From: an uncultured Methanosarcinales archaeon
GTDB lineage: Archaea; Nanobdellota; Nanobdellia; Woesearchaeales; CAZYIM01
Direction: 5' to 3'
NCBI GenBank assembly: GCA_964647565.1
Contig: CAZYIM010000006.1
Location: 25,045-89,044, forward strand
Length of the DNA: 64,000 bases
Shown: piece after piece, positions 18,264-64,000 of the stretch
Numbering within the stretch: the stretch's first letter is position 1
Layout: each line of letters opens with the position of its first letter
Notes under the pieces: generated by a model
What the model saw: the letters and a program-made list of their open reading frames with translations, nothing else
Told to the model about the DNA's origin: nothing
Databases searched by the model: none
Program-made: the position numbers and the translations under genes

Positions 18264-18266
18264 ACA

Positions 18267-19335: not shown

Positions 19336-19367
19336 ATCAGGAATACCTAAAAAGAATTGTCGTTCTT

Positions 19368-43371: not shown

Positions 43372-43484
43372 AGCTTACTAGGCAAAAAATAAGTAAAGTT
43401 GAAAGGATCCCTTATAATGGAAAAGCCTATAACCTCACCACCAGCTCAGGCAATGTCATTGTTAATGGTATTCTATGTTCCAAC
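41941..43484 (+). mobile_element. split intein with homing endonuclease in LonB (N-part 41941-43368, C-part 43368-43484)
   Basis: Block A SLGKSDRL, block [18 protein letters not shown]-like [10 protein letters not shown] and FFGSLFGSE, block F AYNLTT, block G NGILCSN|S. Confidence 0.88.
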
Positions 43485-47874: not shown

Positions 47875-48657
47875 GTGGTTGTCAATCATACAAAACATGA
47901 AGGAGAAGGCAGTATACGGAAATTAAATCAGCTTAGTTTCAGCAAAGCCAAAAGAAACTCTATTTTACGAGATCAGTTCTGTTACCAATTGGAGACTAGA
48001 GTCACAGATGCAATTGGTTTTCAAATCTTTATCGAATATGATCCTACTAGAGAGAAGCTTATCAATCTATGCCAGTATCAGCTAGAACCATATTTTAAGG
48101 ATAAAGAGGACGAACTACATGATCAAGTCGACCAGGCATTCATGAAGGCATTGACAGGAAACCTTTATGTGGGTAATGTCAATAATGAGACAGGATATGC
48201 ACTGCCTCAGTGGATCATGACAACAGCAGGGGCATTCAGGCTTAGGCTGCATGATTTTTTAGGAGGTTTGGCCCACGAGATAATACACTGTGAACAGAAT
48301 TATTATGGTATGTGGATCTGTGACAATAAGCTCGAGAACGACGATGATGACAAGGATAAACAAAGATTCTATGATGCAGTAACCGAGACTGGTGCTCTTT
48401 ATACTGAAATCATCTATCACATACATAGCCACAACCATAACTCCAAGGATTTTGGTTCTACACTGAAGCAATATTTTGACAAATATATGATCCTAAAAGA
48501 TTTGTCAGAAGATCCTGAATTTCCGCAACAAGAGCTTGCACTAAAGCATATCGAACATCTAGAAGGTATCACTGCTTTTAAGAATAAAGAAGGAGACTTT
48601 GTGGATATAGATGATAATATCCTTGATAAAACTCCTCATTGGTTCAGCCATTTCTGA
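47875..48657 (+). CDS. HExxH zincin-like protein, paralog 1 (start uncertain)
   Basis: YDPT, AHEIIHCE, downstream E.GA. Confidence 0.6.
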   Translation: MVVNHTKHEGEGSIRKLNQLSFSKAKRNSILRDQFCYQLETRVTDAIGFQIFIEYDPTREKLINLCQYQLEPYFKDKEDELHDQVDQAFMKALTGNLYVGNVNNETGYALPQWIMTTAGAFRLRLHDFLGGLAHEIIHCEQNYYGMWICDNKLENDDDDKDKQRFYDAVTETGALYTEIIYHIHSHNHNSKDFGSTLKQYFDKYMILKDLSEDPEFPQQELALKHIEHLEGITAFKNKEGDFVDIDDNILDKTPHWFSHF

Positions 48658-48694
48658 GAAACTTTATAAATATTAATCATTTCTTAGTGGTGAA

Positions 48695-49594
48695 ATGAAG
48701 TGGATTAAACGGGCGACCACTACTGTCTTGGCAATAGCAGCTTTGCTATCAACATCATGCGCAGAAAAGGAACCTTCAGACTATTGGTTCCAAGTGGCCA
48801 AGAAGCATGAGAACAGAAGAGTTGAATTTGTAGAGAACGTAGAGAAATCTCTGGATGAAGATATGTATTATGATATAGATGTAATCTACGATCCGGATAA
48901 TGAGCAGTATAAAAAAGACTATTTTGAAATTTATAAAAATGATTATCCTGAGTTCAGCAAAGAAGAAGTGCAAAAATTCTACGAGGAAGGACTAGCTAAA
49001 TCAGAAATAATGTTCATGCACACACTCTGCTCTCCAAAGGCACTTGGGAAAAAAATTGAACCTCAAAAGATATATGTATCACCTAACAGTTTCGGATCTA
49101 ATTTTACTCTCCAGAATTTCTGGACAGTTATACAACATGAAATCGCCCATACCAAGGATCATTACGAAGGCATAGAACTTGTAACAGGTAAAATAGATTA
49201 TCAGAACGAACAGTATATCCAAAGCAAAACAATAACCAACCTTAAAGAGATCAAGGCATATTTCTTTAATATTGAGCAATTATTATCTCAAAATCCTTCA
49301 GATACTTCTTCAATTTTCTATGATGTATTAAATCGTTATGCAGACCATTACTATAATCTTGTAAAAGACCTAAAAAATGATGCTCAACTGGATTCTTCAG
49401 CATATTATGTTGCAGCAGCACAAGTCTATTTCGGAAAAAGAATAAAGCCTACAGCCAAACTTGCAAAAGGCTATGCCTTCGAGGTAGACAATGATTGGTT
49501 AATACAGCTAATTGATCCAGAAGGATATGCAAAGATTACAGATGAATTTGACAGCGGCGGCATCATAGTAAAACAACAGTGGAGGATTTATTGA
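48695..49594 (+). CDS. HExxH zincin-like lipoprotein, paralog 2
   Basis: Signal with STSC lipobox-like end; YDPD, QHEIAHTKD, EIKAY. Confidence 0.7.
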   Translation: MKWIKRATTTVLAIAALLSTSCAEKEPSDYWFQVAKKHENRRVEFVENVEKSLDEDMYYDIDVIYDPDNEQYKKDYFEIYKNDYPEFSKEEVQKFYEEGLAKSEIMFMHTLCSPKALGKKIEPQKIYVSPNSFGSNFTLQNFWTVIQHEIAHTKDHYEGIELVTGKIDYQNEQYIQSKTITNLKEIKAYFFNIEQLLSQNPSDTSSIFYDVLNRYADHYYNLVKDLKNDAQLDSSAYYVAAAQVYFGKRIKPTAKLAKGYAFEVDNDWLIQLIDPEGYAKITDEFDSGGIIVKQQWRIY

Positions 49595-49604
49595 TTAAAT
49601 AAAA

Positions 49605-50342
49605 ATGAAATGGGTAAAAAAAGCTGCAATAACTGCATTGACAATAGCCAGTGTTATGGCATCAGCACAATCTAAAGTACTGCCTCAAGATAAGAACAAC
49701 AAAGCTTTCCAGATAGCAGTTGAAGACAGCACAAAAAGAGAAATGTTTGTTGATCTATTCGATAGTATATTGACAAAAGGATATGGCTTTGAAATAGATG
49801 CAGTCTATGATCCTGACTTTAAGAAAATAAGAAAATATCAAAGGGACAAACTAAAAGAGGCTTTCCCCAATATGACTGAGACTTCCATTGACAGCAGCAT
49901 ATATGCTACACCGTTAAAAACTAATGAAGCAGCTACACCCACATTTTTATTTGAACTAGGAGATCATAAGGCCCAGAAGATATTCGTTAGCAGATATGCA
50001 TTTGAAAAACTACCATCTTATGCGGATTTTAAGGCTGTGATAAAACATGAAGGCCAGCACTGTGAAGATCTCTATCATGGCATAATAATAGGTAATGAAA
50101 TAATAACCAAGAAAAGTAGCTCTTATTTGAACATAAAAACACTTGTTGCTCTATTCGAGATCCGAGCACAAATGGCAACCATGGATCACATCAACGAACA
50201 CAGTCCAGAAGCCATATATGCTTACAAAAGATCCCATAAACAATATAACCTTCTCTCTTATCAACTAGCAATCACCGCATTGGACACAACCAATATCAAT
50301 GGACATGTTGCAAACAAGCAGCTTAATGAAATTGTGAAATAA
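49605..50342 (+). CDS. secreted HExxH zincin-like protein, paralog 3
   Basis: Signal peptide; YDPD, KHEGQHCED, EIRA. Confidence 0.7.
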   Translation: MKWVKKAAITALTIASVMASAQSKVLPQDKNNKAFQIAVEDSTKREMFVDLFDSILTKGYGFEIDAVYDPDFKKIRKYQRDKLKEAFPNMTETSIDSSIYATPLKTNEAATPTFLFELGDHKAQKIFVSRYAFEKLPSYADFKAVIKHEGQHCEDLYHGIIIGNEIITKKSSSYLNIKTLVALFEIRAQMATMDHINEHSPEAIYAYKRSHKQYNLLSYQLAITALDTTNINGHVANKQLNEIVK

Positions 50343-50361
50343 AAAGAGCTAATTAAATAAT

Positions 50362-51177
50362 ATGAAAAATTCCCTAAGAACTAAACTCGCATCATTAACC
50401 CTAGCAGCCTCATTAATTATTCCATCTCTAAACATCCTAAGCCAAACCAAACCAAACCAATCTTATTACAAACAGGCCCAGGATAATCCAAAACAAAGAA
50501 AAAAGTTTGTTGATCAATGGGATGAAAAAGCAAGCCAAAAAGCAGGATTCCCTATCGACTTCGAGTATGATCCTGACTTCACAACATATGATAGCATATA
50601 TACGATTCGAATAAAAAAAGCATATCCAGAAAAAAGCAGTGATGAAGTCAAAGAGATGCTATCTGAAGTACAACTGGCAACAAAAAACTTTTCTTTTTAT
50701 ACACCAGTCATCTCAGCAGAAATAGGAAAGAAAAAACCACAGTATGTTTTTGTAAAAGAAACTGCGTTCTTAGAAAGATTTCTCGTTGATTTTGAAGCTG
50801 CAACAGATCATGAGATTCAACACTGCAAAGACATTCGCGATGGGATTAAATTAGGAAAAATAGTGATTATAGATCATTCAATGATAGACAAATTTAATTA
50901 TGAAACCGCAGAGGCTTTGTTCGAATCAAGAGCATACCATAGTCAGTTAAAATTTTATCATCATAATCAACCTCTGAAGGAAAGCGGATACAACTCAACA
51001 GTCCGAAAATATGCACAGCATTACAACCTTCTTAAAAACCTTGCACAGAAAGATCCTACTTTCAGCAGTATGTTTGCAAGATTACAACTCCAACAATTAC
51101 AAGACATGATTCCGACAATCAAGCAGGATGGTTCAATTTATCTGGTCACTCCAGAAAAAAAGTTCTATATTCATTGA
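50362..51177 (+). CDS. secreted HExxH zincin-like protein, paralog 4
   Basis: Signal peptide; YDPD, DHEIQHCKD, ESRAY. Confidence 0.7.
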   Translation: MKNSLRTKLASLTLAASLIIPSLNILSQTKPNQSYYKQAQDNPKQRKKFVDQWDEKASQKAGFPIDFEYDPDFTTYDSIYTIRIKKAYPEKSSDEVKEMLSEVQLATKNFSFYTPVISAEIGKKKPQYVFVKETAFLERFLVDFEAATDHEIQHCKDIRDGIKLGKIVIIDHSMIDKFNYETAEALFESRAYHSQLKFYHHNQPLKESGYNSTVRKYAQHYNLLKNLAQKDPTFSSMFARLQLQQLQDMIPTIKQDGSIYLVTPEKKFYIH

Positions 51178-51491: not shown

Positions 51492-51998
51492 CTAGCTAAC
51501 TGTCACCTTGCCATTAACAGGAGTCAGGATCAACTCATTAGTGTCATAATCAAGCACCTTGTAGCTGACAAAAGAGACAGCTGCTTCTCCCTGTGCTTTT
51601 GCTTTAAATTTAAGGATTGCCAAGGTTCCGCTGCCATCAATACCAGTCTTTTCCATCCTGACATTGGCAATCTTTCGTATAAATCCAAGCTCAGCGCTGC
51701 TAGGGGTTATCCAGAAAGTACTGGCTACACCTTCCTCATTTAAAAACGATCCTTCACTTATAGAAACAAACTCAAGAATAGCAGGATCATAGGATACGTC
51801 CATCTGGTAACCAAACGCATTAGTTACTTCCTGTAGGTCTATGTTGACCTCGACCTCTTCACCAACAGCTGCTGCGCCAGATGTAAGTTTTAAGGCTGGT
51901 CCAGCAACTTCAGGTTCTGGTTCAGGAATGTTGCATGCCGCAACTAAAACCAGCATTGTCAAAACAGCAAGTATCGTCAAACTTTTTCCAATTCTCAT
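51492..51998 (-). CDS. single-cohesin lipoprotein
   Basis: Lipobox LVAA-C, PEPEPE linker, cohesin pattern VGEEVEV.I...YDPAILEFVSISEG...GSGTLA.LKFKAK..G...GKVTV. Confidence 0.82.
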   Translation of the reverse strand: MRIGKSLTILAVLTMLVLVAACNIPEPEPEVAGPALKLTSGAAAVGEEVEVNIDLQEVTNAFGYQMDVSYDPAILEFVSISEGSFLNEEGVASTFWITPSSAELGFIRKIANVRMEKTGIDGSGTLAILKFKAKAQGEAAVSFVSYKVLDYDTNELILTPVNGKVTVS

Positions 51999-54625
51999 TT
52001 TTTAATTACCTCTTTTTTTATTTTTAGTTTTTTATCATCAGCTTTAAACTCTTTTTTAATATTCTTAAGGTCTTTTTCCATGCTAACAAAACCATCAACG
52101 CCAACATCTTTCATGCTATCGATCATCTGGTCCATCTCATCCAGCTTTTTGGGCGGCGGTGCAGGAGGTGCAGATGGCTTATAGGCCTTATCTTCTTTAT
52201 TCTGGGCTGAGATGTTCTTTCGCATCTTAGTAACCACCTGTTTATGTAGATTTTGATTCATCTGTGGTCCCTGCAGCCTCTTTTTCTGGTTCAAAGCAAA
52301 GGCTCCTTTGAATATCTCATTGATCACCTTATCATCCCAACCTTTGTCAACAAATGCCATTCTCAGAGTACTATAATTGCTGCCCTGCACCAGCATATCA
52401 GCCACATAATCCCTCAATCTGACCATATCACTTACAGAAGGCTCGACAGCTGCATCTTGAGTATGGAATCTGGAATATGCGAAGTATATTATTGCGCCTG
52501 CTATGACCAAACCAAGAAGGATCCAGATAATAGTATATGCTGTACCTCCGCCAACACTACCCTCACCTCCAGTAACTGTTCCAGGTTGCTGGACTGTCCC
52601 ATTGGTTTTAGGGATGTCACCAGGTCTTGGAGGCGGAACAGGTGGTGGCCCTCTACCATTACCCCCTGTCGTTGTTGTTGTCTGGCACATCTCATCAACA
52701 TCGCCGTCACAATCATTGTCAAGAGTATCACATGCAGTTTCAATCCTCTGATAATTTCCCCCATATGTAGTCTTATCGCATGCAGACCATCCAAGCATAC
52801 CATCACAGCTCTTTGTGGTTCCTGCACACACACCTTCTGTCAAAGGACACGCCATTGAAGAAGGGAAATTATCTGCACTGCCATCACAGTCATTATCCAG
52901 ACCATCACACTTACTCTCTTCAGTCTCATAATTAGGTCCATATGTTGCTACAGTACAGGCTGCCCAACTACCATTGACACAACTCTGGGTTGTGCCTGTA
53001 CAAACACCCTCAATCAGAGAGCATTTTTTAACCTCCAGGTTATTATCGACTGTACCATCGCAATCATCATCAAGATTGTTGCAAGTCTCATTACCAGGGA
53101 AAGTACCATTACATTCTGTCCAGTTACCATCGAGACAAGTCTGGACGCCCATCACACAAGTTCCTACATTGACACTGCAGTTCCTGGTTGTATTGTCCTG
53201 GCAGGAACAACCCTCATCCACAACGCCATCGCAATTATCGTCTACGGTATTGCAGAGTTCAGTAGCTCCAGTATAGATGTTAGGATTTGTATCATCACAG
53301 TCATCTGCATTCGGACAGCTGCCAGACATATTATATGTGTCGTTATCATCATCAAGGCATCCAGGTGAATTGATAACCAATGCCGCAGTTCCAGTAGTAA
53401 GTGGAAGATTTGAACCATTCAACATAATCAATTCGGCATTGGAGAAACTCAGAGTTGAGTTTCCTGCAGACTTAGGTGTGAATGTGAATGTAGCAAATTT
53501 GCCAGAACCATTGACTCCGCTGTCATAAGATCTTGTACAGTTGATGTTCTTGACAATCCCAGGAGTTGAATTATCTAATGGCTGACAGTTCATTTGGACT
53601 GTACCCTTGGGAAATGGTCCGATAACAAAGGTTTTGAAAGTTAATTTAGTACCATAGTTCAAATCAAAGATGACAGTCTTAAGATTAGTTGCATTGGTTA
53701 TCATGACATCAAAATTGATGTCTGCTAAAGAATAATTTTTTACGAGTTGATCAGGATTAAATGAAAGTCTTGCTGTTTGCAACGGAACAGTTGCAGTTGG
53801 GGCAAGGGTTGTAAAAGTTTGATCCGAAGATAGTTTGCTTGTGCCTGACGCTGTTGTTGCATTGATACGATAATGATATGTTGTATTCGAAGCAAGTCCG
53901 TTGAGAGTGATACTATGATCTGTCAGCATACTGCTATCGATTTTGTTGGATCCATAATTCGTGTCAATACCATATTCTAAAATAGTGCTTGTAGAAACAT
54001 TGGTCTTCCATGTTATCACAGATGAATTCTTAGTAATCTGAGTTGCTGCTATATCAGTAATAGAAAATGTTTCAGGAGCAGTGGTTCTAATAGTAATGGT
54101 AGCATTGACCAATACAGGGTTAATCGAGTTGGTATCATTATCAGTGATCACACTATCATTGGTGAATCCTAAAACAGTTGTGCTCTCTTTTAAGGTCTTA
54201 AAAGTAAGTTTTCCAAAAACTCCGCTGCCAGTCACCAGATCGGTTGGCAGAGCAATAAACAACCTCTGGTCATCCCAGTACTGGTTCAGCATCGAAGGCT
54301 GGACAAATTCACCCATATCAGGCCTGACGAACTCTAAAGACGTGTTATCATAATCAATAACAGCTATTATGGACTTGGCATCAGCAACATTCTCAACTTT
54401 CAACTCAACCTCAAATGTTTCGCCTACAAGCTTATCAATTTGTGAAGGTACAAAGGACATCTTCTCGGTACCTGTAGCAGCCATACCTCCAATACTATCC
54501 TGCTGTGGAAACATGTAAAAATAACCTACCAGCATGACAAGAGCAAGAAGAGATATGGCCAAAGAAGTCTTTAAATGGGAATGGAAACTAGAATTATCTC
54601 TATTTGAAGGTTTTTTCCCTTTCAT
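51995..54625 (-). CDS. membrane-anchored scaffoldin-like protein: cohesin - FN3 - cohesin - Cys/Asp repeats - Pro linker - TM - tail
   Basis: Cohesin patterns at aa ~55-180 and ~285-419 (GSG.F..LTF/FTF); FN3 aa ~185-273 (ITWKTN...LNGLASNTTYHYRI); ExCxxxDxDCDGxxD repeats; TM AYTIIWILLGLVIAGAIIYFAY. Confidence 0.82.
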   Translation of the reverse strand: MKGKKPSNRDNSSFHSHLKTSLAISLLALVMLVGYFYMFPQQDSIGGMAATGTEKMSFVPSQIDKLVGETFEVELKVENVADAKSIIAVIDYDNTSLEFVRPDMGEFVQPSMLNQYWDDQRLFIALPTDLVTGSGVFGKLTFKTLKESTTVLGFTNDSVITDNDTNSINPVLVNATITIRTTAPETFSITDIAATQITKNSSVITWKTNVSTSTILEYGIDTNYGSNKIDSSMLTDHSITLNGLASNTTYHYRINATTASGTSKLSSDQTFTTLAPTATVPLQTARLSFNPDQLVKNYSLADINFDVMITNATNLKTVIFDLNYGTKLTFKTFVIGPFPKGTVQMNCQPLDNSTPGIVKNINCTRSYDSGVNGSGKFATFTFTPKSAGNSTLSFSNAELIMLNGSNLPLTTGTAALVINSPGCLDDDNDTYNMSGSCPNADDCDDTNPNIYTGATELCNTVDDNCDGVVDEGCSCQDNTTRNCSVNVGTCVMGVQTCLDGNWTECNGTFPGNETCNNLDDDCDGTVDNNLEVKKCSLIEGVCTGTTQSCVNGSWAACTVATYGPNYETEESKCDGLDNDCDGSADNFPSSMACPLTEGVCAGTTKSCDGMLGWSACDKTTYGGNYQRIETACDTLDNDCDGDVDEMCQTTTTTGGNGRGPPPVPPPRPGDIPKTNGTVQQPGTVTGGEGSVGGGTAYTIIWILLGLVIAGAIIYFAYSRFHTQDAAVEPSVSDMVRLRDYVADMLVQGSNYSTLRMAFVDKGWDDKVINEIFKGAFALNQKKRLQGPQMNQNLHKQVVTKMRKNISAQNKEDKAYKPSAPPAPPPKKLDEMDQMIDSMKDVGVDGFVSMEKDLKNIKKEFKADDKKLKIKKEVIKK

Positions 54626-54701
54626 TCTACTAACACTACCTTACTATCCTCTCCGACATTAGGATATATAAAGTTTTCCCAATTTTTAGCTTGAAATTGT
54701 C

Positions 54702-57224
54702 TCAAAGATGGTTGATTATCACCAACAGATCATGCACATCCACTACGCCATCATCATTGATATCATGTGTTTTTCCACTAATATCCCTGATTACCAGTAT
54801 CAGGTCAGAGATATCAACTGAGCCATCTTTGTTTACATCAGCTTTATTGGGCGGATTATTTGATTGGTTATTTAGAGGATTTGTTTGAATATTTTTAAAG
54901 CAGCTGTTACAATTCTGGACATGCAATGTTGTAGGATTGATAACATCCTCTGCCATTCCATTGTATCCAATCCTTGCTTTACTTATCGCGTAGCTCCCAT
55001 CATTTGTTCTAGTAGCAGTCAACTCGAAGGTCCTGTAGGGTCTGAGCCTCACATGGAGTGTTTTTCCGTCAGCAGACAAGCTGAACAGGTCATTCCCTTT
55101 TCCTGCAGAACTCTTGCTCAGTTTATATGGTATATTTATTTGATAAGCATGATAAGTGGCCTTATTGGCAGGGACATCATAATCAACCTTAGGAGATACT
55201 GGCGGCCAGCCAATAGTAAAATTAGCTAAGGATTCAAGATGAGGATTATGGACTGATAAACTGAATCTGTCATCACATGAACGATACAAGACATATACAG
55301 GAAGGTTTGAGCCAATCAATTGATGGTTGAAAGGTTCAAAAAAAGCAGCTCCTACCAAACATTGCGTAGTCTCCCTAACAATATGCGCTGTTTTATCATG
55401 CTTTATGATATCAATATCAGGATCAGCAGCATAACTCTGGGTTGCAGCGGAGTTTGCTGCAGGCAGGTATATCACTGCAAACTTACTATCAACAGGTTTA
55501 ATCCCATGATCAAGATAGTATCTGCGATGAGGAATCCTCTTATTGGTAGGGATGTCAGCTATGTTGTCATCGACCTTCTCTGCATTTACACTTAAGGATT
55601 CAGGAAATACAATCCCTGTTTCATCATGATGCAACCAGTCCAGTATTCCAAGATTCCCTTCGAAATCAATTGACTTTTGACCTCTTGAAGTACTCAGAGA
55701 GTTAACTTGCTCTTCAAAGGTATCCAGCCAAGTCAGCATCCTTTTATCGTTCGCATCTGTCGAAGTTATTCCACTGGCCAGGGCTACGATCTCATCATCT
55801 AAGAAGAACCAGGATTTTCTCATCTTGATGCTCTTGCCCTGTAGATTCTCAGCAGCAATCCCGTAATAACCCTCTAAAGTGCTTTGGCCATAGAAGTCCC
55901 AGCCCCCTGATTTGACTATATAACACCCATAACTACCCCATTCCTGCTTGCCAGGAGTGTGTATCTTATCCTCACAATTCTCTGCAAAGGTCACGCTTTT
56001 CAGCAGTACAGAAGGATAGTATTTGATGGCGTCTGTTCTCATCATCTCAGGATGGTTTGCAGTGACAAAATTGATGTTTCCAAAGATCGACTTAAATGAA
56101 GAGAACTCCTCTGCAGGCTTTCCAACGTTGGCCATCCTAACACTTGCAAAATAGTTTGGTCTTCTTACGAGAAGATAGTTTGCCACGGGATAAGCCATCG
56201 CACCCACAAGATTCTGGTTTTTGTCAATCAATTTCTTCATTTCAGGATGCAGAGGTTTCAGTTCAGAATAATCAGTTTCAAGAATGGCATTAAGGCCTCG
56301 TGTTAGATATGAAAAACAATTTCTGGGTTTCTTTGTGTCAGGATAAGGATCTGTGTACCCTTTGAAAGCCAGCCACCTCAAAAAATTAGTATACCAAGCT
56401 CCAAACAACTCAATGGCAGTCCTTTGCTGCGGATCATCAGGGGTGCTCCTGGCCACTAAAGACAAACTGGTGCCTTCTGTTATCCTCAGATAGTATCCAA
56501 AATCCCTGACACCAGACGCCCCGTAATGAAAGTTGGGCATCATGCCATGCTCAAAGAAACTCCAGTCTTTCTGTATATTTCCATAGCTCAAGCCTTCATC
56601 AATTGTTACAATCTGTTTATTGGCACGACTTGCTATCTCAGCTGATTTCTCCAAAAGGGCATCATCATCAAAATATAATCCATTTATCAGTTTAGCAAAG
56701 GTTGGGGACATCACATTGTGGCCTCCATATTTGGAATATAGAGAGGAACCAGCATTTCTTTCAAGAAATTGCTCTACTTTATCTCTTGATTTAGAAGATA
56801 TTGCATTCATATCGTAGGATTTCAGTTTAAGAAGAGCTTTTCCAAGGTTTTGAGGAAGGCCATAGTATTTTGAGTACCAATCCATACTTATGCAGTCATC
56901 AGAATACTCTACTGCCTGATCCAGCCTCTGGTTAACTGCACTAGATCCATAACCACAGCCTATTGCATAGATCAACTCAGCAGCTCTGTACCATTCTTCA
57001 GGAATTGCATCCTTTTTGTTGCAGTTTTGACCTTGACCAACAGGCATGTTGATAAGTTCATTGGCCCTTAATTGCAATTTGTTTGAGCAATCAAGATGGT
57101 AATCGATATATCTCTGTCTTATAGTGGCCTTGTCAGGGGAGCTGATTGAAATGACCTGCACACTAACCAGGGCTATGATCATTAACATGATGAAAAAGCC
57201 CCTGGAATAATTGTGAATCTTCAT
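54702..57224 (-). CDS. secreted polysaccharide lyase family 8 with C-terminal dockerin
   Basis: Signal peptide; IQKDWSFFEHG...HYG (His/Tyr region), KSWFFLDDEIVALASGI; DVNKDGSVDISDL...DINDDGVVDVHDL. Confidence 0.82.
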   Translation of the reverse strand: MKIHNYSRGFFIMLMIIALVSVQVISISSPDKATIRQRYIDYHLDCSNKLQLRANELINMPVGQGQNCNKKDAIPEEWYRAAELIYAIGCGYGSSAVNQRLDQAVEYSDDCISMDWYSKYYGLPQNLGKALLKLKSYDMNAISSKSRDKVEQFLERNAGSSLYSKYGGHNVMSPTFAKLINGLYFDDDALLEKSAEIASRANKQIVTIDEGLSYGNIQKDWSFFEHGMMPNFHYGASGVRDFGYYLRITEGTSLSLVARSTPDDPQQRTAIELFGAWYTNFLRWLAFKGYTDPYPDTKKPRNCFSYLTRGLNAILETDYSELKPLHPEMKKLIDKNQNLVGAMAYPVANYLLVRRPNYFASVRMANVGKPAEEFSSFKSIFGNINFVTANHPEMMRTDAIKYYPSVLLKSVTFAENCEDKIHTPGKQEWGSYGCYIVKSGGWDFYGQSTLEGYYGIAAENLQGKSIKMRKSWFFLDDEIVALASGITSTDANDKRMLTWLDTFEEQVNSLSTSRGQKSIDFEGNLGILDWLHHDETGIVFPESLSVNAEKVDDNIADIPTNKRIPHRRYYLDHGIKPVDSKFAVIYLPAANSAATQSYAADPDIDIIKHDKTAHIVRETTQCLVGAAFFEPFNHQLIGSNLPVYVLYRSCDDRFSLSVHNPHLESLANFTIGWPPVSPKVDYDVPANKATYHAYQINIPYKLSKSSAGKGNDLFSLSADGKTLHVRLRPYRTFELTATRTNDGSYAISKARIGYNGMAEDVINPTTLHVQNCNSCFKNIQTNPLNNQSNNPPNKADVNKDGSVDISDLILVIRDISGKTHDINDDGVVDVHDLLVIINHL

Positions 57225-57252
57225 TGTTTTCTCAGTTATAATTCAGACAGTC

Positions 57253-58914
57253 TTAAATAAATTTGATTATTTTAAGAAGGTCCTGCACATCTACATTGCC
57301 ATCCCCAGTAAGATCGTACTGCGTTGTTCCAAAAGACCTTATCAGTAAGATAAGATCAATAATGTCAACAATACCATCATTGTTGATATCTTCAGGAAGC
57401 TGCACAGAAGAACCATCATACACCCCATCCAAGGTCTTCCATAATCCGCCAGTACATTCATTGCCATTGTCTTCCCATGTTACAGAGATTCCAAGTTCAT
57501 CACACACTCTGTCTTCCATGGGCCATGGCCAGAGTCTCTGATTGGTCTTTACTCCATCTATATACATATATCTTAGGTCAGCACCAAGATATGTACCGTC
57601 CCCGCCGTTCATCCGATCTCCTTCAGGGAACATATACGCCCCCTTACCCCATTTGGCTGTGTTAAAAGAAGGATCTTTCATCTGCTCATTAGAATTTAGA
57701 GTGAAAGCATTGCCATACATATCAACACCAAGACTGCCAATATTCCAGTACTGGTTATAATCATGTTCCACAGTTTTGGGTTTGCCTTTCCATCTAAGCG
57801 CATAAACTTCTTCTCCAATGTCTGCAAAGATTGAATTGGTAAAGGTTGTTTTCAAGCTGAATCCGGGTTCATAACCATCAGCATACTTATCTTTGCAGTT
57901 GTATATCCATTCGTGGCCCGGAGGGCCACTCTCAGACATGTAGAAAGCAGGAGTTTCTTCACCATTGCCTACTGCAGTCATGTGATTAACTACCATAGAG
58001 CTGTCGCCCCTGTTTAAGTGTTGATACTTGTTATTCAATGATACAATATCTACAAACTGATTGTTCTCAGAGGCTTTGCATGTTCCAGAATCAAAGAAGC
58101 CATAATGGTGTCCGACATCAAATGTCATGCTTCCAAGTATTTTATTATTACTGCCTACCATTGTGTTGTATTCATGGTTCCATATTCCTATACCCTCCAA
58201 TGCTATATAATAACTCGGATCCCTGGTAGCTATCACATTCTCCACAATGCTGTCAGGGGTTCCGTACAACTGCAACACAATCCCATATATACCGTTACTG
58301 CCTTCATAAGGATGGTCCTGCCAATAGCCAAACATTCTTCGAATAGTCACTCTCTTGCTGCCCAGGGCACTCATCTGGGTCCGGGCTCTTCCGCCTGCAA
58401 TAAGATCTTCATAAAGTATATCCTCAGAGTTCCATGCGAGGAAATTATGGCAGTTGCAGTCTCCATCCTTAGTGTCATAAGAAGACACTTTCTTCACCTC
58501 TACAAACTGCGATTCAATTACAGAAACAACACCTTCTACAGAATTCCTGCAGACCAATCCTTCAAGATGAATATAGCTGCAGTTCCTGATATAGCAAGGC
58601 CTTAACCTAAACTCAGCATCAATCGTTACTTTGCCATCATTAAGGGCTTTTATTGTTATTGGTTTGTCCTGAGCTCCATTTTTATGTCTGATCTCGACCA
58701 TCGAATCCACATTCTTATAGGTGCCATCCAAAAGATAAAGAGTATCCCCAGGCGTTGCAAGGGATATGAAATCAGTCACCTTAAACGGGCTGGACTCTGA
58801 ACTTCCGTCACCAGCACCTGAAGGTGATGCATAGTAACTAACTGCAGAGGCTGCAACAGAACTGATTATAAAAACTATCAAGACAATTAAGCTAATCATA
58901 ATGTTATTTTTCAT
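57253..58914 (-). CDS. secreted right-handed beta-helix protein (pectin-lyase-like fold) with C-terminal dockerin
   Basis: YYASPSG.GDGS...PF...PGDTLYLLDGTY; Asn-rich coils; DINNDGIVDIIDL...DLTGDGNVDVQDL. Confidence 0.78.
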   Translation of the reverse strand: MKNNIMISLIVLIVFIISSVAASAVSYYASPSGAGDGSSESSPFKVTDFISLATPGDTLYLLDGTYKNVDSMVEIRHKNGAQDKPITIKALNDGKVTIDAEFRLRPCYIRNCSYIHLEGLVCRNSVEGVVSVIESQFVEVKKVSSYDTKDGDCNCHNFLAWNSEDILYEDLIAGGRARTQMSALGSKRVTIRRMFGYWQDHPYEGSNGIYGIVLQLYGTPDSIVENVIATRDPSYYIALEGIGIWNHEYNTMVGSNNKILGSMTFDVGHHYGFFDSGTCKASENNQFVDIVSLNNKYQHLNRGDSSMVVNHMTAVGNGEETPAFYMSESGPPGHEWIYNCKDKYADGYEPGFSLKTTFTNSIFADIGEEVYALRWKGKPKTVEHDYNQYWNIGSLGVDMYGNAFTLNSNEQMKDPSFNTAKWGKGAYMFPEGDRMNGGDGTYLGADLRYMYIDGVKTNQRLWPWPMEDRVCDELGISVTWEDNGNECTGGLWKTLDGVYDGSSVQLPEDINNDGIVDIIDLILLIRSFGTTQYDLTGDGNVDVQDLLKIIKFI

Positions 58915-58915
58915 T

Positions 58916-61153
58916 TTATATCAATTGTATCAATCTAAGTAAGTCCTGAACATCTACCCTACCGTCTCCTGTAAGATCATGTTGTGAAGTTCCAAAAGAC
59001 TTGACTAATAATACAAGGTCAATAACATCGACCGATCCATCCTTGTTTATGTCTTCGAGAACTAAGTTATCATCTTCAACATGGCAACTTCCACTCTTAA
59101 GCTTAAGATTCCTGGCCAGGTTTCCAGATAGTGCTGTCCTTCCCAACTCATGGTTCATCCTGTCTAGGCAGTTATTCCTCTTGCCATCCATCATCGCACG
59201 AAGGGTAGCATCCATAATTCTCTGGACTTCACCATTATGCTGACCTAATGTTACCCAGCCATGATATATCTGACCCATGCCGCCTAAGCCATATTTTTCA
59301 TAATAACCTTCTGCAAGATCATCACCTGACAGGAAGTTGACAAAATAGGGCACTCCATTTTTCGGCTGATAGACCACCTTAGTAATCAGGTTAGACAAGC
59401 CAAGCAGATCGGCTTCATCAAAGACATAACCATAGTTGTACAGGTCTGTTACAGCGTATGCATGCCTATTGGAATGAGATGTATCGTCTGAATCATAAAG
59501 ATCCCCATAACCAATTCCATAAGCCCATATTATAGAGTTATGATCATAGGACTCAAACCTGTCCTTGAAACCCTGAGCCAATTTGGTTATCATATCCTCA
59601 TACTTTCCATCCACTTCGTTCATATGCAATAAAATCCTAAGATAAAGCACTATCTTATCGCTGAATGTAATAGATTCATCAGTTATCTTGTTAACCATCC
59701 AGGTATCCATACCCCTTTTCTGCCATTTTTCTATTATTTGTTTGTCTACAAAATCATAAACCTTTTGGGCTCGGGCACCAAACTTTGCATTCAGTTGCGG
59801 ATCATTCAATACCAAGTCTGCCAGCCTTGCAAGTTCTGTGCTGCCCTGCAGGTCTTCAAGTTGATATGCTATACTGGAACTTGTGTATCCTGAGTTTTCC
59901 CAAGGACCACCCCAATTCAGGTATCCGTCCTTATCCTTAATTGTGGCCTTGGTTATCATAGTCTCCATCCAGGTCAAAGCTCTTTCAAGATAGACCTCAT
60001 CACCAGTAGCTTCATACATTGCCAGAGTTCCCATAAGCACATACTGGAACTCGTAATAACGGGTGCCATAGTTGCTAGCTGCTTTAGAATCTAATTTGCT
60101 CTTATCAGCCTCATATGTCCGGTCAACAACCTGCTTATAGTATGATATGTTTTCTGAATAGTCTGGACAGTTATCAGGGGGATCATCATTTGGACTATCA
60201 GAGGGATAAATTGGCTTAACCACCCGGAACTTATTCAAGGGAATATTATCTGCGAAGTTTTCCAAATCCATAATTCCCTGCCAGCTCTTGTCAGGATTAT
60301 CAGCCAATCTTTCAGCGTAAATACCATTGTTTCTTGGTCCGTTGTTCTCGACAAAGATCATGCCATACTCCTGCAGAGCTTTAGCAATAATTTTGTTTGC
60401 ACGATTCAAGCCCAAAGAGTCTATGTCCAGCTCGGGATCTAACTGCAGCCTGTATCCTAAAGACATCGCCCATTGCCGCTCACTCAGGCCGCCGTTATAT
60501 TTTTCACAAGGGTAAACCCCTCTATCAGGAGTTCTCATACCCCAATATGCAAAAGCTATCGCATGGTCAATATAGCCTTTTTCGATCTCATCATGCATCA
60601 CCAGACCATGTGTCAGAGGGACGGGACATACCCTACAGCTACCCCTAACATCATAGGGTGAGTTGATACCATCAGTTGTAAGATTCCAACGCCTTATTAC
60701 TGTTGCACTCCAACTTCCATCTGCAGCTTTTTTTGCCTGATAGAAATCCCATTCATGTTTACCGTCTGCACTAATAATGACCATGTGGCCATCAGCATCA
60801 GGCGCAGGCATTGCCTCTTGAGGGATTGGTACACTGTCATAACCATATTTGACAGGCCGATTGGTCTTGATCTCATCACCATAACAGCAAGCATCAAAAG
60901 ATGTCACTTTAATATAAGGGGTATCTGCCCGGGCATGCCAGACAGGCACACTCCAACTTCTATAACTTATTGACATACGCCTACTATTGATAAGAACATC
61001 ATTGATATAATTCAGAGAGTTCTCCATCAACTCAGGATTCTCAGGTATTTTCTCATACCATGTGCTGTGCTGCTGGAAAAACTTGGTCGCCGTTGCAGAA
61101 GGCAGCATAACTATCAAGACTAATATGATAAAAACTAGTACACCTCTTTTCAT
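58916..61153 (-). CDS. secreted two-domain protein (uncharacterised domain + alpha/alpha-toroid-like domain) with C-terminal dockerin
   Basis: Signal peptide; DGHM, IDHAIAF, ALQEYGM; Pro/Asp linker; MYEATGDEVYLERA; DINKDGSVDVIDL...DLTGDGRVDVQDL. Confidence 0.75.
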   Translation of the reverse strand: MKRGVLVFIILVLIVMLPSATATKFFQQHSTWYEKIPENPELMENSLNYINDVLINSRRMSISYRSWSVPVWHARADTPYIKVTSFDACCYGDEIKTNRPVKYGYDSVPIPQEAMPAPDADGHMVIISADGKHEWDFYQAKKAADGSWSATVIRRWNLTTDGINSPYDVRGSCRVCPVPLTHGLVMHDEIEKGYIDHAIAFAYWGMRTPDRGVYPCEKYNGGLSERQWAMSLGYRLQLDPELDIDSLGLNRANKIIAKALQEYGMIFVENNGPRNNGIYAERLADNPDKSWQGIMDLENFADNIPLNKFRVVKPIYPSDSPNDDPPDNCPDYSENISYYKQVVDRTYEADKSKLDSKAASNYGTRYYEFQYVLMGTLAMYEATGDEVYLERALTWMETMITKATIKDKDGYLNWGGPWENSGYTSSSIAYQLEDLQGSTELARLADLVLNDPQLNAKFGARAQKVYDFVDKQIIEKWQKRGMDTWMVNKITDESITFSDKIVLYLRILLHMNEVDGKYEDMITKLAQGFKDRFESYDHNSIIWAYGIGYGDLYDSDDTSHSNRHAYAVTDLYNYGYVFDEADLLGLSNLITKVVYQPKNGVPYFVNFLSGDDLAEGYYEKYGLGGMGQIYHGWVTLGQHNGEVQRIMDATLRAMMDGKRNNCLDRMNHELGRTALSGNLARNLKLKSGSCHVEDDNLVLEDINKDGSVDVIDLVLLVKSFGTSQHDLTGDGRVDVQDLLRLIQLI

Positions 61154-61177
61154 ATACTCAATTTTCAGGAGAACTAC

Positions 61178-61255
61178 TATAAAAATTTATAGTTTTTTAA
61201 CAATGACCAGCAGGTCCTTGACATCAACATTACCATCTCCTGTCAGATCATACTG
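61178..61255. repeat. 78-bp exact direct repeat, copy 1 (dockerin 3' half, stop and start of spacer)
   Basis: Identical to 63729-63806. Confidence 0.9.
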
Positions 61256-63706
61256 GGAAGTACCAAAAGCCCTTACCAATAATACTAAATCAATAATATC
61301 AACAACACCATCCAAATTCAGATCACCTGGCATAGCATCAGGAACAATATCAGGAACACAATCCTGAATAGACTCATTATAATGACCCGCATTACATTTG
61401 ACGCAATACGAAAAGCCGCTTCTTCCATAAGTACTGCAATATGCATCGCCTAACGATAAGTGAGATTCCCAAGCATCAACAACAGCAGTGCAACCAGAAC
61501 CGCCATGACCCATGCAAGTCCTCGATACACCACCATCAGAAGGACAACCATCATCTGAATTATCAATACAAGCGCATGCAGAATTAAAAGTTCCAGGACA
61601 ACTCTGACTAGTAGTACATGAATCACCTACTGAACAATTCAGAGGTGGATCCGGAGGAGGAGGAACAACCGCAGGACAATCATCACCTGCAGTGTCAACA
61701 CAAGCACATGCAAAATCATAAGTCCCAGGACAGTTCTGATATGTAGTGCAAACAGCACCACGGGTACAAAGTGGGACGTTGCCACCACCTTCACAACCAT
61801 TACCTGAATAGGACCATGCATTAAAATCATAAGTGCAAGTTTTTGAGCCTTTAGAAACAGTCATATTCTTATCATTCCACTTGACAGTTTTATTCCCGGA
61901 ATTGTCAATAATCTCCAGTCTTGAAAAATCACCAGGCAGATATTCAACACCATTCACATATGTCTTTCTATTTCTTGCCTCAATCACATCACCCTTGCCA
62001 GTCTCGAACCTGCCAGATGATACTAAACGAGATGCAGATTGAAATTCAGAGAAACTAGCATACTCAACACCTTCAGTAGCCACCTCAATCGCCTGCCAAC
62101 TGCTACCCCAATATATAGCCAACATCGTCTTCCCTTTCTTGAAATAATTCCAACCATCATTCAATTTGTACTCATTGAACCAAGAATCCCTGCACACATC
62201 AGCACCATCAACCGTTACACAGCCTGAACCTGCAGGTAACAAATTATCTTCGCCCTCATCAAAAACATCAGTAGTCTTCCACCAATACATCTCATTGTTC
62301 ACACGAGCAATATGCAATAAGGGATCATTATTCTGGACCAGTATTGCATTCTTATATTGATAACCATTATTACCATACTTAAAATAACACTCCTGGACAC
62401 CACAACCGTTTTTATGATCTGCATCGCCATGGATGCTGTTGATCCAGATCGAAAAAGGATTTCCCCTGACACGATAATCAGTCAACACACTCAAGATCCA
62501 AAGCTTCTGAACCTTTGAAGAGCCCAAATTATAATTCTTAGTGACAAATATCATTGAATTCTTGCTTCCTGAACTTCCACCAGCCTCAAGAACCAGGTGC
62601 CCATAATCATCAGATTTAGCAGCAACAACCAAGATACTCTCAATCAAGCCAGAGGGCCTGTAAGATGAAACCAAGATATCAGAATACTGTCCATCATCAG
62701 ATCCCTCACCTAAGATGTGCCAAAAGGGAAAAGTAAAACCTCCATCAACAACATTTCGCTTATAATAACGGCCCAAGATACCACCCTGATGTCCTGCTGA
62801 GTGCTGACCAAGCATGTCAAGCAAGATAAGATCCAACATCATCTTAGCTTTGCGCTTCATCACAGTACCCGCAGGATCATTTGTTCTCTCAGAAAAATCA
62901 TGAAGCAAGAGAAGTCCTCCCAAGGGTGCCAACATATAGCCACCATCATTCTCAGTCTTGGCACTATTGACAACATTATCAAACCACTTGTAAAGCCAAT
63001 CCCTTCTAAGTTCAAACGCATTGTAAGTCTGCCCGGTAGCATAGGTTCTGCCATTATAAGTAAAGCCATAATCGTGGCCAGAAACACTATACTGCATTGA
63101 TACATCCTTATTCTCAAGAGCCCCTAAATAGCCTATAGACTCTGACTGAATCTCAACCTCACTATCTGAATCAGGACCCCCTTTAAAGTAATACATATAC
63201 TTAAATTGGTTATTAATATCCACGCGTAGTTCATTTTTTTTAGCATCAGACAGAACATGAGAATACTGATACAGCAAACGAGTTAAGGTAACCTCTGCCA
63301 TAGATCCGGGCCAGTTCCACCTGTCAGTCATAGATGATTGAATATTCCCTTCTAGACAACGAAGATCTGCATATTCATTTTTTTCTTGATTAAACTCAAT
63401 ATTATTCACTTCATCTTTGCAAAGCATATAAGTACCATCCGCTTGCACATCTTTACACTCAGCATTAGCAGAATCATAAATGCTTTCAAGATTGCTCCTG
63501 CAGTTATTCAGATTTATTCCTTGCTCTGCCCAGGATAATATCTCAGTCCTGCCAAAATGAGGATGCGTACTTTTTCTTGTGTCAGAAGCTGAATATTTTG
63601 ATAGCCAGTGATCCTTTCTTTGATCAAAAGTCGCAGAAACTGAAAAAAAAGATATCAATATTAAAATAATCAAAAAGAACAGAACACTAATCAACCTCTT
63701 TTTCAT
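61187..63706 (-). CDS. secreted protein with helical and beta-rich domains, Cys-rich repeats and C-terminal dockerin
   Basis: Signal peptide; GGILGRYY; two C..G..CTT.Q.CPGT...ACAC.D...D.CP repeats; DLNLDGVVDIIDL...DLTGDGNVDVKDL. Confidence 0.75.
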   Translation of the reverse strand: MKKRLISVLFFLIILILISFFSVSATFDQRKDHWLSKYSASDTRKSTHPHFGRTEILSWAEQGINLNNCRSNLESIYDSANAECKDVQADGTYMLCKDEVNNIEFNQEKNEYADLRCLEGNIQSSMTDRWNWPGSMAEVTLTRLLYQYSHVLSDAKKNELRVDINNQFKYMYYFKGGPDSDSEVEIQSESIGYLGALENKDVSMQYSVSGHDYGFTYNGRTYATGQTYNAFELRRDWLYKWFDNVVNSAKTENDGGYMLAPLGGLLLLHDFSERTNDPAGTVMKRKAKMMLDLILLDMLGQHSAGHQGGILGRYYKRNVVDGGFTFPFWHILGEGSDDGQYSDILVSSYRPSGLIESILVVAAKSDDYGHLVLEAGGSSGSKNSMIFVTKNYNLGSSKVQKLWILSVLTDYRVRGNPFSIWINSIHGDADHKNGCGVQECYFKYGNNGYQYKNAILVQNNDPLLHIARVNNEMYWWKTTDVFDEGEDNLLPAGSGCVTVDGADVCRDSWFNEYKLNDGWNYFKKGKTMLAIYWGSSWQAIEVATEGVEYASFSEFQSASRLVSSGRFETGKGDVIEARNRKTYVNGVEYLPGDFSRLEIIDNSGNKTVKWNDKNMTVSKGSKTCTYDFNAWSYSGNGCEGGGNVPLCTRGAVCTTYQNCPGTYDFACACVDTAGDDCPAVVPPPPDPPLNCSVGDSCTTSQSCPGTFNSACACIDNSDDGCPSDGGVSRTCMGHGGSGCTAVVDAWESHLSLGDAYCSTYGRSGFSYCVKCNAGHYNESIQDCVPDIVPDAMPGDLNLDGVVDIIDLVLLVRAFGTSQYDLTGDGNVDVKDLLVIVKKL

Positions 63707-63728
63707 AATTGTTTCCTAGAACTTCAGA

Positions 63729-63806
63729 TATAAAAATTTATAGTTTTTTAACAATGACCAGCAGGTCCTTGACATCAACATTACCATCTCCTGTCAGATC
63801 ATACTG
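63729..63806. repeat. 78-bp exact direct repeat, copy 2
   Basis: Identical to 61178-61255. Confidence 0.9.
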
Positions 63807-64000
63807 TGAGGTTCCAAAAGCTCTAATCATTATTACTAAATCTATAATATTAACAATACCATCAGAATTCAGGTCGCCTAGCAAAACATCAGGAACATTA
63901 CATGTTCCACCAACACAACACGAGCTTCCATAATCACTAGAGTAGCTAAAGCTCCCACCATCACACTCTTCATCAGACTGGCAGGGAGTTCCTCCAAGCT
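63738..64000 (-). CDS. 3' end of a fifth dockerin-bearing protein (truncated by window edge; absent from ORF track)
   Basis: Manual translation: ...CQSDEECDGG...CCVGGTCNVPDVLLGDLNSDGIVNIIDLVIMIRAFGTSQYDLTGDGNVDVKDLLVIVKKL*. Confidence 0.85.
   Translation of the reverse strand, partial: LGGTPCQSDEECDGGSFSYSSDYGSSCCVGGTCNVPDVLLGDLNSDGIVNIIDLVIMIRAFGTSQYDLTGDGNVDVKDLLVIVKKL

Follow-up and report, generated by a model that had tools for sequence, protein, structure and literature searches.

Cohesin-dockerin systems in archaea

Enzyme complexes assembled through cohesin and dockerin modules are, by textbook account, an invention of bacteria, and the archaeal modules known since 1999 came without a clear multi-enzyme role. 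Here we describe a cohesin-dockerin locus in a 64,000-nucleotide stretch of DNA (the window) from an archaeon filed as an uncultured Methanosarcinales archaeon and placed by GTDB in the Nanobdellota (Nanobdellia; Woesearchaeales; CAZYIM01); the stretch covers positions 25,045 to 89,044 of the forward strand of contig CAZYIM010000006.1 in assembly GCA_964647565.1. The available portion of PMC9012536 cites cohesin and dockerin modules of Archaeoglobus fulgidus (Bayer 1999; Haimovitz 2008) as binding specifically; those modules are archaeal like the locus, but a multi-enzyme cargo cluster is not described for them there. It also cites that multi-cohesin scaffoldins were absent from the archaea known at the time of the Peer 2009 survey and that cohesins and dockerins outside cellulosomes, with roles unknown, occur widely. 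For anaerobic methanotrophic archaea (ANME), it describes numerous cohesin and dockerin proteins, among them scaffoldin-like ones with as many as five cohesins, and a proposed role in cell-surface organisation. The ANME cargo in that portion consists mainly of ABC-transporter substrate-binding and S-layer-domain proteins, with no lyase cluster described, whereas the cargo described here includes lyases and the host belongs to the DPANN archaea. In passages from a study of DPANN archaea at vents, few polysaccharide lyases (PLs) were counted and cohesins and dockerins went unmentioned.

Our findings suggested that the locus probably encodes a system that displays enzymes on the cell surface through cohesin-dockerin docking. 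The full-text literature, with subscription journals and supplements outside its coverage, held no description of a cohesin-dockerin system or an enzyme-plus-scaffoldin cluster in DPANN archaea, in line with the original prediction (made from the sequence of the window before any database search), which knew of no clustered archaeal enzyme-plus-scaffoldin locus.

Cohesin proteins of the locus

Seven minus-strand open reading frames (ORFs) were found in 51492-64000 of the window, at the coordinates that the original prediction had assigned to them. Two of these ORFs hold all of the cohesin modules detected in the genome, exactly three, and were resolved into the following features.

51492..51998, minus strand: CohLipo, a 168-aa single-cohesin protein (Pfam Cohesin 65.7 bits, E 6.5e-18, residues 35-167)
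51995..54625, minus strand: membrane-anchored scaffoldin, 876 aa, with signal/anchor, Coh1, FN3, Coh2, Cys/Asp stalk, transmembrane (TM) helix and Lys-rich cytoplasmic tail
54065..54463, minus strand: Coh1, scaffoldin residues ~55-187 (Pfam Cohesin 49.2 bits, E 8.3e-13)
53825..54061, minus strand: FN3 spacer domain, residues 189-267 (Pfam fn3 32.3 bits, E 1.2e-7)
53366..53770, minus strand: Coh2, divergent, residues ~286-420 (lineage cohesin profile)
52646..53365, minus strand: Cys/Asp-rich stalk of four ~58-aa repeats (Pfam Cu-binding_MopE 73.1 bits)
52475..52537, minus strand: single TM helix, residues ~697-717 (Kyte-Doolittle window score 2.48 for 690-720)
51998-52465, minus strand: Lys-rich tail of ~155 aa, after the TM helix

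The curated cut-off of Pfam Cohesin (PF00963) is 24.1 bits. For Coh2 alone, Cohesin was the top Pfam match, below that cut-off (19.1 vs 24.1 bits, E 0.0016). Coh2 was counted as a cohesin because the results of a lineage profile, a hidden Markov model (HMM), BLASTP and a protein atlas agreed. A profile of 22 lineage cohesins, built without Coh2 and with Coh1 in its training set, matched Coh2 by hhalign with a probability of 98.5% (E 1.6e-15, 136 columns), and hmmsearch with the lineage cohesin HMM gave an independent E-value of 1.4e-16 for Coh2 and of 1.1e-27 for Coh1, the latter being part of the training set. BLASTP of Coh2 against CohLipo gave E 1e-7, and its language-model neighbours in the protein atlas were cohesin clusters in 30 of 30 cases (top score 0.94). 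A sequence search of the PDB with Coh2 returned no matches; the lineage cohesin profile matched 36 distinct solved sequences, nearly all of them cellulosomal cohesins or scaffoldins (best E 4.9e-22). A single-sequence AlphaFold2 model of scaffoldin residues 45-420 had a mean pLDDT of 35.5 and was uninformative on the nine-stranded beta-sandwich fold.

The four stalk repeats share the core C-x-x-[LV]-D-[DN]-[DN]-C-D-G, at scaffoldin residues 458, 515, 573 and 632, and residues 416-660 contain 26 Cys and 32 Asp. A hydropathy scan placed an N-terminal hydrophobic stretch at residues 18-41 and a single TM-like one within 690-720. No full-length homolog of the scaffoldin was found among 5.8 billion proteins, the matches coming from FN3. 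The CohLipo ATG overlaps the scaffoldin stop codon by 4 nt, and the CohLipo N-terminus, MRIGKSLTILAVLTMLVLVAAC (...LVAAC), was read by eye as lipobox-like, ending at Cys22, with residues 1-27 hydrophobic. The original prediction had proposed a two-cohesin protein with FN3, a Cys/Asp stalk and a TM anchor, followed by an overlapping single-cohesin lipoprotein. Pfam, hhalign and hydropathy agreed on the former (on Coh2 by way of the lineage profile), and the latter was borne out by its Cohesin score, its 4-nt overlap and its lipobox-like start. The predicted anchoring to the cell held as well, with a membrane anchor on both cohesin proteins, a TM helix on one and a lipobox-like N-terminus on the other.

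Two observations were made on nearby genes. A 712-aa protein (14210-16348, minus strand) has collagen triple-helix repeats together with the MopE-type Cys/Asp motif of the scaffoldin stalk. Four tandem plus-strand paralogs of 245-299 aa (47875-51177) are convergent with the CohLipo gene and all carry an HExxH-type motif (HEIIH, HEIAH, HEGQH, HEIQH); those at 48695, 49605 and 50362 have signal- or lipobox-like N-termini, and the one at 47875 has none. They matched no Pfam family at E<=1e-5 and may be an unnamed, mostly secreted zinc peptidase family.

Dockerin modules

The other five ORFs encode the putative cargo and end in dockerins.

54702..57224, minus strand: PL8-family lyase, 840 aa (Lyase_8 67.7 bits, cut-off 27), dockerin at ~54705-54842
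57253..58914, minus strand: beta-helix protein, 553 aa (Chondroitinas_B 36.2 bits, profile positions 7-100 only, PL6-type N-terminal), dockerin at 57256-57393
58916..61153, minus strand: two-domain enzyme, 745 aa (Dockerin_1 30.1 bits), dockerin at 58919-59056
61187..63706, minus strand: member of unnamed family B, 839 aa, with Cys-rich linkers (Dockerin_1 26.4 bits), dockerin at 61190-61327
63738..64000, minus strand: edge fragment, the C-terminal 86 aa of a 696-aa Golvesin_C protein from the GHL15 paralog family, dockerin at 63741-63878; its N-terminal part lies on another contig (C47)

All five exceeded the curated cut-off of Pfam Dockerin_1 (PF00404; 22.9 bits), with 32.9 bits for 54702, 32.6 for 57253, 30.1 for 58916, 26.4 for 61187 and 32.6 for 63738, and every dockerin makes up the final ~46 residues before the stop codon. 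The duplicated calcium-loop-helix C-termini that had been predicted on five co-oriented genes were recovered in 5/5 by the Pfam HMM search (26.4-32.9 bits). The signal peptides proposed for the four complete genes were supported by N-termini running from K/R-rich through hydrophobic to small-residue segments, as read by eye.

Genome-wide, Pfam gave 15 dockerin matches in 14 genes, all on the contig of the window (C6) or on contigs C47 and C25; four further dockerin ORFs were recognised solely by direct reading or with a locus-specific HMM. This HMM, made from 17 of the dockerins, contributed one of the four (C25:964-1221, E 6e-19), recovery of the 17 themselves being expected by construction. 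With this HMM, no dockerin was detected at E<1e-3 outside C6, C47 and C25 in the 2.68-Mb assembly, which is 86.9% complete, so that more copies could sit in unassembled DNA.

The dockerin consensus, D[LI]NxDGxVDIxDLVLLVRAFGTSQ[YH]DLTGDGxVDV[QK]DLLxIIKKL, contains two calcium-loop/helix segments. In a 27-row dockerin alignment, D12, D23, D37, D41 and D48 were invariant, and N14, D16 and G42 were conserved in at least 90% of rows. The dockerins of the locus are a compact variant of ~46 aa with a 4-residue linker and no C-terminal extension. Canonical type I dockerins are ~60-70 aa long and have a linker or middle helix between their segments. With the shortened linker, the canonical binding mode cannot be assumed. 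V-R and I-K stand at equivalent helix positions of the two segments, a symmetry that would be compatible with a dual-binding mode. A predicted complex of CohLipo with one dockerin and two calcium ions scored 0.15 (mark 0.32); made without controls, it spoke neither for nor against binding.

These sequence features bear on the alternative that the modules are plain calcium-binding or EF-hand-like tails, that the cohesin-like domains act as adhesins or as Ig-like spacers, and that their co-location is incidental. The shortened linker agrees with such a view, as do weak EF-hand matches that overlap the dockerins (E 9e-4) and the widespread modules of unknown role cited in the portion of PMC9012536 noted above. 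Dockerin_1 outscored the EF-hand models in every gene, however, and the dockerins share one locus with the only three cohesins, which, together with the distribution among relatives given below, makes this alternative very unlikely.

The dockerin peptides are 41-77% identical to a reference module; at the DNA level, identity is 48-88% and synonymous changes are numerous. The catalytic parts of paralogs that combine GHL15 with Golvesin_C share mostly 27-40% protein identity, one pair reaching 63%. A conserved dockerin peptide set against divergent DNA and divergent catalytic parts suggested selection on the docking module, and the pattern points to purifying selection as a better fit to the dockerin similarity than recent gene conversion. 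Gene conversion as a general cause was rejected on the DNA identities and the many synonymous differences; a possible exception is the 839-aa gene and the adjoining edge gene, whose dockerin DNA is 88% identical.

Extent of the locus and contig joins

The window edge is the end of C6, an 89-kb contig, and the dockerin genes continue beyond it. The end of C6 and the start of C47 overlap by 55 identical bases, and joining them gave one unbroken ORF of 696 aa that starts like a signal peptide and ends in a dockerin. C47 (15.2 kb) adds five further complete dockerin genes and one that is 5'-truncated. This truncated gene aligned to residues 256-703 of a paralog on C25 (C25_703), and the 3'-truncated first gene of C25 aligned to residues 132-227. 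Because the two match consecutive parts of the same paralog, C25 probably follows C47 after a short gap; no overlap of at least 15 nt between the two contigs was found. C25 contributes six or seven more dockerin genes. The joined locus would thus consist of 18 dockerin ORFs followed by two cohesin genes with three cohesins, all co-oriented, over ~43 kb. The original prediction had called for a count of dockerin genes upstream of the window; the 18 found in all over C6, C47 and C25 extend the locus to about four times its first extent. The modules detected in the assembly are confined to three contigs, apparently parts of one locus, which makes chance an implausible account of their co-location.

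In one metagenome run (X1), a single contig links 61177 to 63729, omitting 2551 nt, and 78 letters fit both sides of the joint. The ends of the joint are near-identical dockerin/spacer cassettes of two adjacent genes, and the skip was rejected as a real deletion and read as repeat collapse between the cassettes. Such cassettes likely caused the assembly breaks in the cluster.

On the minus strand of C25, 964-2719 holds a transglutaminase-like gene with a run of N, followed by an out-of-frame 86-codon dockerin ORF, probably one dockerin-tagged gene split by a scaffold gap or frameshift. The plus strand of the same contig carries an ORF of more than 853 aa (17442-20000) that joins a class II Asp/Lys/Asn-type tRNA synthetase core to B3_4 and an alanyl-tRNA-synthetase C-terminal-like region, an unusual fusion.

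Spacers between the genes

The spacers that follow the dockerins carry a recurrent element, seen in the window at two positions.

63707..63737, minus strand: 31-nt spacer; TATA-box-like ATTTTTATAT adjoins the upstream stop codon and lies ~25-30 nt ahead of the next ATG
61154..61186, minus strand: 33-nt spacer ahead of the 745-aa gene, with TATA-like element ATTTTTATAG

Over the three contigs, 12 of 17 post-dockerin spacers are ~31-35 nt long and open with TTTTTATA or TTTAAATA, ~25-30 nt before the next ATG. Archaeal TATA boxes drive leaderless mRNAs, and the spacer elements fit such boxes by sequence and position. The spacer cassette is often followed by ATGAAAAGAGG (MKRG...), and it looks like a duplicated promoter and leaderless-start unit. 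At the remaining junctions, the genes are 1 nt apart or overlap, which suggests that genes at these tight junctions are co-transcribed. The window contained no tRNA and no Rfam family.

Cargo proteins

Polysaccharide-active families recur in the cargo. The 840-aa lyase matched xanthan lyase 6f2p (E 1.3e-17) and chondroitinase AC (E 6e-13) in the PDB, the matches covering residues ~439-673. Its Lyase_8_C match was below cut-off (18.5 vs 22 bits), and an NCBIfam scan added just sub-threshold chondroitinase-AC and hyaluronate-lyase matches. The locus contains two PL8 lyases, one with a Malectin module, and a 503-aa protein with weak pectate-lyase (Pectate_lyase_4) and beta-helix signals (E 0.019). 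Eight paralogs all have Golvesin_C, with GHL15 scored by Pfam in five; the 696-aa edge protein, whose Golvesin_C lies on its C47 part, is 29-40% identical to the GHL15 paralogs. The Golvesin_C part of the family profile matched the C-terminal module of Paenibacillus xanthan lyase 6f2p (E 4e-23), and we take this C-terminal module to be a xanthan-binding carbohydrate-binding module (CBM). Further cargo includes a DUF362 protein and a transglutaminase-like protein.

The 745-aa protein had 3264 homologs and consists of two widespread unnamed domains that also occur separately; a PDB search with its sequence gave no matches. The model of its N-domain, from a 42-row alignment, reached pLDDT 90. With the wider structural aligner (VIA), the top six matches of this domain were MltA-type lytic transglycosylases (Z 4.1-5.1, 168-186 residues), and further carbohydrate-active proteins with a double-psi beta-barrel came next; Foldseek found no match in the PDB at E<=0.001. 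The modelled MltA-like fold of the N-domain is a lead only, as is the resemblance of the C-domain to an (alpha/alpha)-barrel glycosidase or lyase (atlas scores <=0.85). A full-length alignment of the protein was dropped, its C-domain rows being misplaced (~12% identity). The 839-aa protein had only 12 homologs at E<=1e-5 among 5.8 billion proteins, some of which also carry NPCBM, Golvesin_C or CHB_HEX_C modules, and gave only dockerin-level matches to PDB sequences. Three members of its family B are in the locus, namely the 839-aa protein, C25_703 and the gene split between C47 and C25.

A polysaccharide-degrading role had been predicted for the cargo, and secreted proteins of predicted polysaccharide-active families were what Pfam found. 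Among 27 homologs of the GHL15 family, the precomputed Pfam domains included no dockerin; some had tails of the type IX secretion system (T9SS), and the named ones were bacterial. Nine metagenome loci with family-B homologs had no cohesin and no dockerin. Given both results, dockerin tagging of these enzymes seems, as far as the compared sequences go, particular to this archaeon.

Host genome and assembly integrity

The assembly measures 2.68 Mb, with 86.9% completeness and 1.85% contamination, and Kae1, DnaK, GrpE and LonB are single-copy in it. Relatives of the same order with a listed size span 0.6-2.1 Mb, and all are smaller than this genome, contrary to the reduced genome that the original prediction had assumed. 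Its DPANN host was upheld by Kae1, encoded on the contig of the locus. The nearest named relatives of this protein were Ca. Woesearchaeota records (60-71% identity). All nine Kae1 loci at 65% identity or more were titled Ca. Woesearchaeota (6) or 'archaeon' (3), and the 20 at 59% or more comprised 15 Woesearchaeota, 3 'archaeon', 1 Nanoarchaeota and 1 Thermoplasmatota, the last of them matching in part, on a contig of 3 kb. The small-subunit rRNA scored 1405 bits with the archaeal model and 1048 with the bacterial one. An ANME or methanogen identity was rejected, as no mcrA was found in the genome. In the collection of genomes compared, its family has no other member.

The named homologs of the cargo catalytic modules are mostly bacterial and the assembly breaks inside the cluster, as would be expected if the locus were bacterial DNA misbinned or chimerically assembled into an archaeal genome. 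The cohesins and five dockerin genes nevertheless share the 89-kb contig with Kae1, TrmB, DnaK and an archaeal LonB that contains an intein; GC content is even across the window, and the spacers bear TATA-like boxes of the archaeal kind. DNA runs labelled marine or seawater metagenome contain the stretch at >=99% identity, and short low-depth contigs in them span the gene junctions. Contigs of four runs tile 28-30 of 30 bins at this identity; some bins are uncovered in runs X2-X4, and X1/X2 and X3/X4 share contig coordinates and may be duplicate filings. The linkage on C6 already contradicts a misbinned or chimeric origin, which, taken with these bridged junctions, is extremely unlikely.

Two of the housekeeping loci were themselves unusual. 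The LonB gene (41314-44747, plus strand) is present as two ORFs overlapping by 4 nt, the first with a short AAA N-terminus and then an intein-splicing domain and the second with the LonB lid and protease domain; it may be an intein gene with a frame break or an unusual split. In the grpE-dnaK-dnaJ cluster, an OLD-family nuclease with an AAA_15/AAA_21 ATPase and TOPRIM (2557-4212, minus strand) lies between dnaJ and dnaK.

Distribution among relatives

Among 400 other genomes of the order, cohesin was present at E<=1e-5 in 33 and dockerin at E<=1e-4 in 71, the latter tally taking in two genomes flagged unpublished (G315 and G273) that no other result uses. Dockerins occurred in 21 of the 33 cohesin-positive genomes and in 50 of the 367 cohesin-negative ones, a comparison that is indicative only, as kin are not independent. 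In at least nine genomes, a single contig carried a dockerin and a cohesin no more than 7 kb apart; since 51 dockerin matches were unlisted, nine is a minimum. This co-occurrence and adjacency, read with the same caution, argue further against plain calcium-binding tails. The present genome had the most dockerin matches, 14, with at most 11 in the other genomes sampled. On the scale of the phylum, 300 other genomes yielded 21 with a cohesin; 19 of them belong to this order, and the remaining 2 fall outside the order but within the class.

Twenty regions from 15 relatives were examined, with Pfam run on 66 of 188 ORFs, the longer ones near matches being chosen. A Cohesin+MopE anchor was found in 7 of the 15 relatives, and a small single-cohesin protein (173-212 aa) in four, three of which had it on the same contig as the Cohesin+MopE anchor. 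Neighbouring dockerin genes in the relatives encode beta-helix or Pel9A-like, Polysacc_lyase (PF14099), PL14-like, GH39-like and large adhesin-like proteins. The synteny across Woesearchaeota that the original prediction had asked about was thus seen as cohesin+MopE anchors by dockerin-tagged lyases and, judged from gene content, the design is lineage-wide and not unique to this genome. We put forward, as a tentative view held with less than even confidence, that Woesearchaeota own a lineage-wide display system of cohesin+MopE membrane anchors, a small lipid-anchored cohesin and dockerin-tagged depolymerases, here expanded to a ~43-kb, 20-gene locus by a private 46-residue mini-dockerin on enzyme modules shared with polymer-degrading bacteria.

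In one relative (G160), contigs C8 and C3 carry eight dockerin genes, mostly Polysacc_lyase or PL14-like, with the dockerin near the N-terminus (~25-80) or in mid-protein. The same genome encodes a leucyl-tRNA synthetase with a Ser_hydrolase / alpha-beta-hydrolase insert at residues ~455-640 (L084, 3761-7039).

Proposed mechanism and purpose

The sequences show the identities of the modules, the anchors, the order of the genes, the confinement of both kinds of module to this locus and the return of the design in relatives; from these we infer cohesin-dockerin binding, the substrates and the purpose of the system. That the dockerins bind the cohesins is the firmer part, and we hold it with good confidence. 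Eighteen exported proteins, each with a 46-residue dockerin, would plug into three cohesins. Two of these would be held on the TM-anchored scaffoldin, raised by a Cys/Asp stalk that disulfides and calcium would stabilise, and the third would sit on the small protein with the lipobox-like N-terminus. With 18 cargo proteins for 3 sockets, the mix of depolymerases on display would vary. The PL8 lyases, lyase-like beta-helix proteins, GHL15 TIM-barrel-type paralogs and unnamed families would then cut acidic or amino-sugar exopolysaccharides near the cell.

Several findings weigh against this reading. The dockerins of the locus are without the 9-12 inter-segment residues found in other Woesearchaeotal dockerins, and Coh1 and Coh2 are only 25% and 19% identical to CohLipo, both being divergent. 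The catalytic N-domain of the PL8 lyase is sub-threshold (Lyase_8_N 18.9 vs 24 bits), and several cargo families are without known activity. The C47-to-C25 join was drawn only from the paralog alignment, without sequence overlap. The 86.9%-complete genome yielded no KduI, KDPG aldolase or GH88, which usually act in the consumption of lyase products.

As to purpose, the harvest of sugars from marine slime polysaccharides is plausible, at somewhat short of an even chance. A feeding role fits the large genome, the expansion of CBM-bearing paralogs and the bacterial saprotroph affinities of the cargo. That KduI, KDPG aldolase and GH88 were not found at 86.9% completeness weakens it and leaves room for breaching of a matrix or envelope. 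The original prediction had named the host envelope as a possible target; we regard the breaching of a host or biofilm matrix as possible but unlikely.

The same docking could also serve an episymbiont as an attack or attachment tool, clearing a partner's capsule, biofilm matrix or wall polymer to reach its membrane, which might be likened to phage tail depolymerases. The DPANN lineage would suit such a tool, as would the canonical uronate-utilisation genes not found at the stated completeness and the weakly MltA-like N-domain of the 745-aa protein (Z 4.1-5.1). Two relatives' loci point the same way: one dockerin cluster adjoins a Peptidase_S74 (endosialidase chaperone) protein, and one anchor matched Disaggr_repeat at 35.8 bits (full-sequence cut-off 33.9) with no single stretch passing, so that the match is sub-threshold. 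Against this stand a 2.68-Mb genome with single-copy housekeeping genes, which exceeds every relative of listed size and suits autonomy better, and eight paralogs of a CBM-bearing glycoside hydrolase (GH)-like family that resemble saprotroph repertoires, with homologs in free-living bacterial degraders, some with T9SS tails. No host is known either, and on balance we consider an attack tool improbable.

Significance and comparison with known systems

If Woesearchaeota do own such a lineage-wide display system, the locus would give Archaea their first true 'cellulosome-type' machine of many enzymes, and, with a genome of 2.7 Mb, would point to a DPANN lineage that lives, or reaches partners, by surface-bound digestion of acidic exopolysaccharides. 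It would bear on DPANN interactions, either through feeding on slime polymers or through cutting a partner's coat, and the genome places within DPANN a member far above 'reduced symbiont' size. Eighteen tagged depolymerases, a scaffold of their own and recurring smaller versions across the order make the function of archaeal cohesins and dockerins directly testable. The 46-residue dockerin and the Cys/Asp stalk are new parts, of possible interest for the design of synthetic enzyme scaffolds.

The clostridial cellulosome (C. thermocellum CipA), as described in the available portion of PMC9012536, has the same dockerin-tagged secreted enzymes, cohesins on a non-catalytic cell-bound scaffold and clustered genes. 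The original prediction had called the locus cellulosome-like; the dockerin and cohesin modules sustained that comparison, and its cellulosic side did not hold, as Pfam matched no classical cellulase GH family in the cargo and the scaffoldin has FN3 but no CBM. The locus has 2+1 cohesins and, in place of the canonical SLH (S-layer homology) domains or sortase, its anchors are a TM helix and a lipobox-like N-terminus; Pfam found no SLH domain in the window proteins. It further differs from the clostridial design in its MopE-type Cys/Asp stalk, its compact 46-aa dockerin with a 4-residue linker and its archaeal host.

Re-use of the scaffold for polysaccharides other than cellulose is shared with the Ruminococcus bromii amylosome (PMC4611034) and the mucinolysomes (PMC12997984, PMC12632915), as far as the available portions of these papers describe them. 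Those systems belong to gut Firmicutes and carry amylases or mucin glycosidases, whereas the locus belongs to a marine DPANN archaeon and combines lyases and GHL15-type proteins with other anchors. Ca. Shapirobacterales of the candidate phyla radiation (CPR; 10.1101/2021.08.21.457207) are likewise ultra-small and uncultured, with expressed cohesin and dockerin proteins and GH and PL genes that were read as cellulosome-like; they are bacterial, and the passage concerned gives no locus architecture, anchor or cargo tagging. The cohesin-dockerin multi-enzyme design is thus the known part of the system, and what would be new is that it is archaeal, loaded with lyases, anchored by a TM helix or lipid, and built on a compact dockerin.

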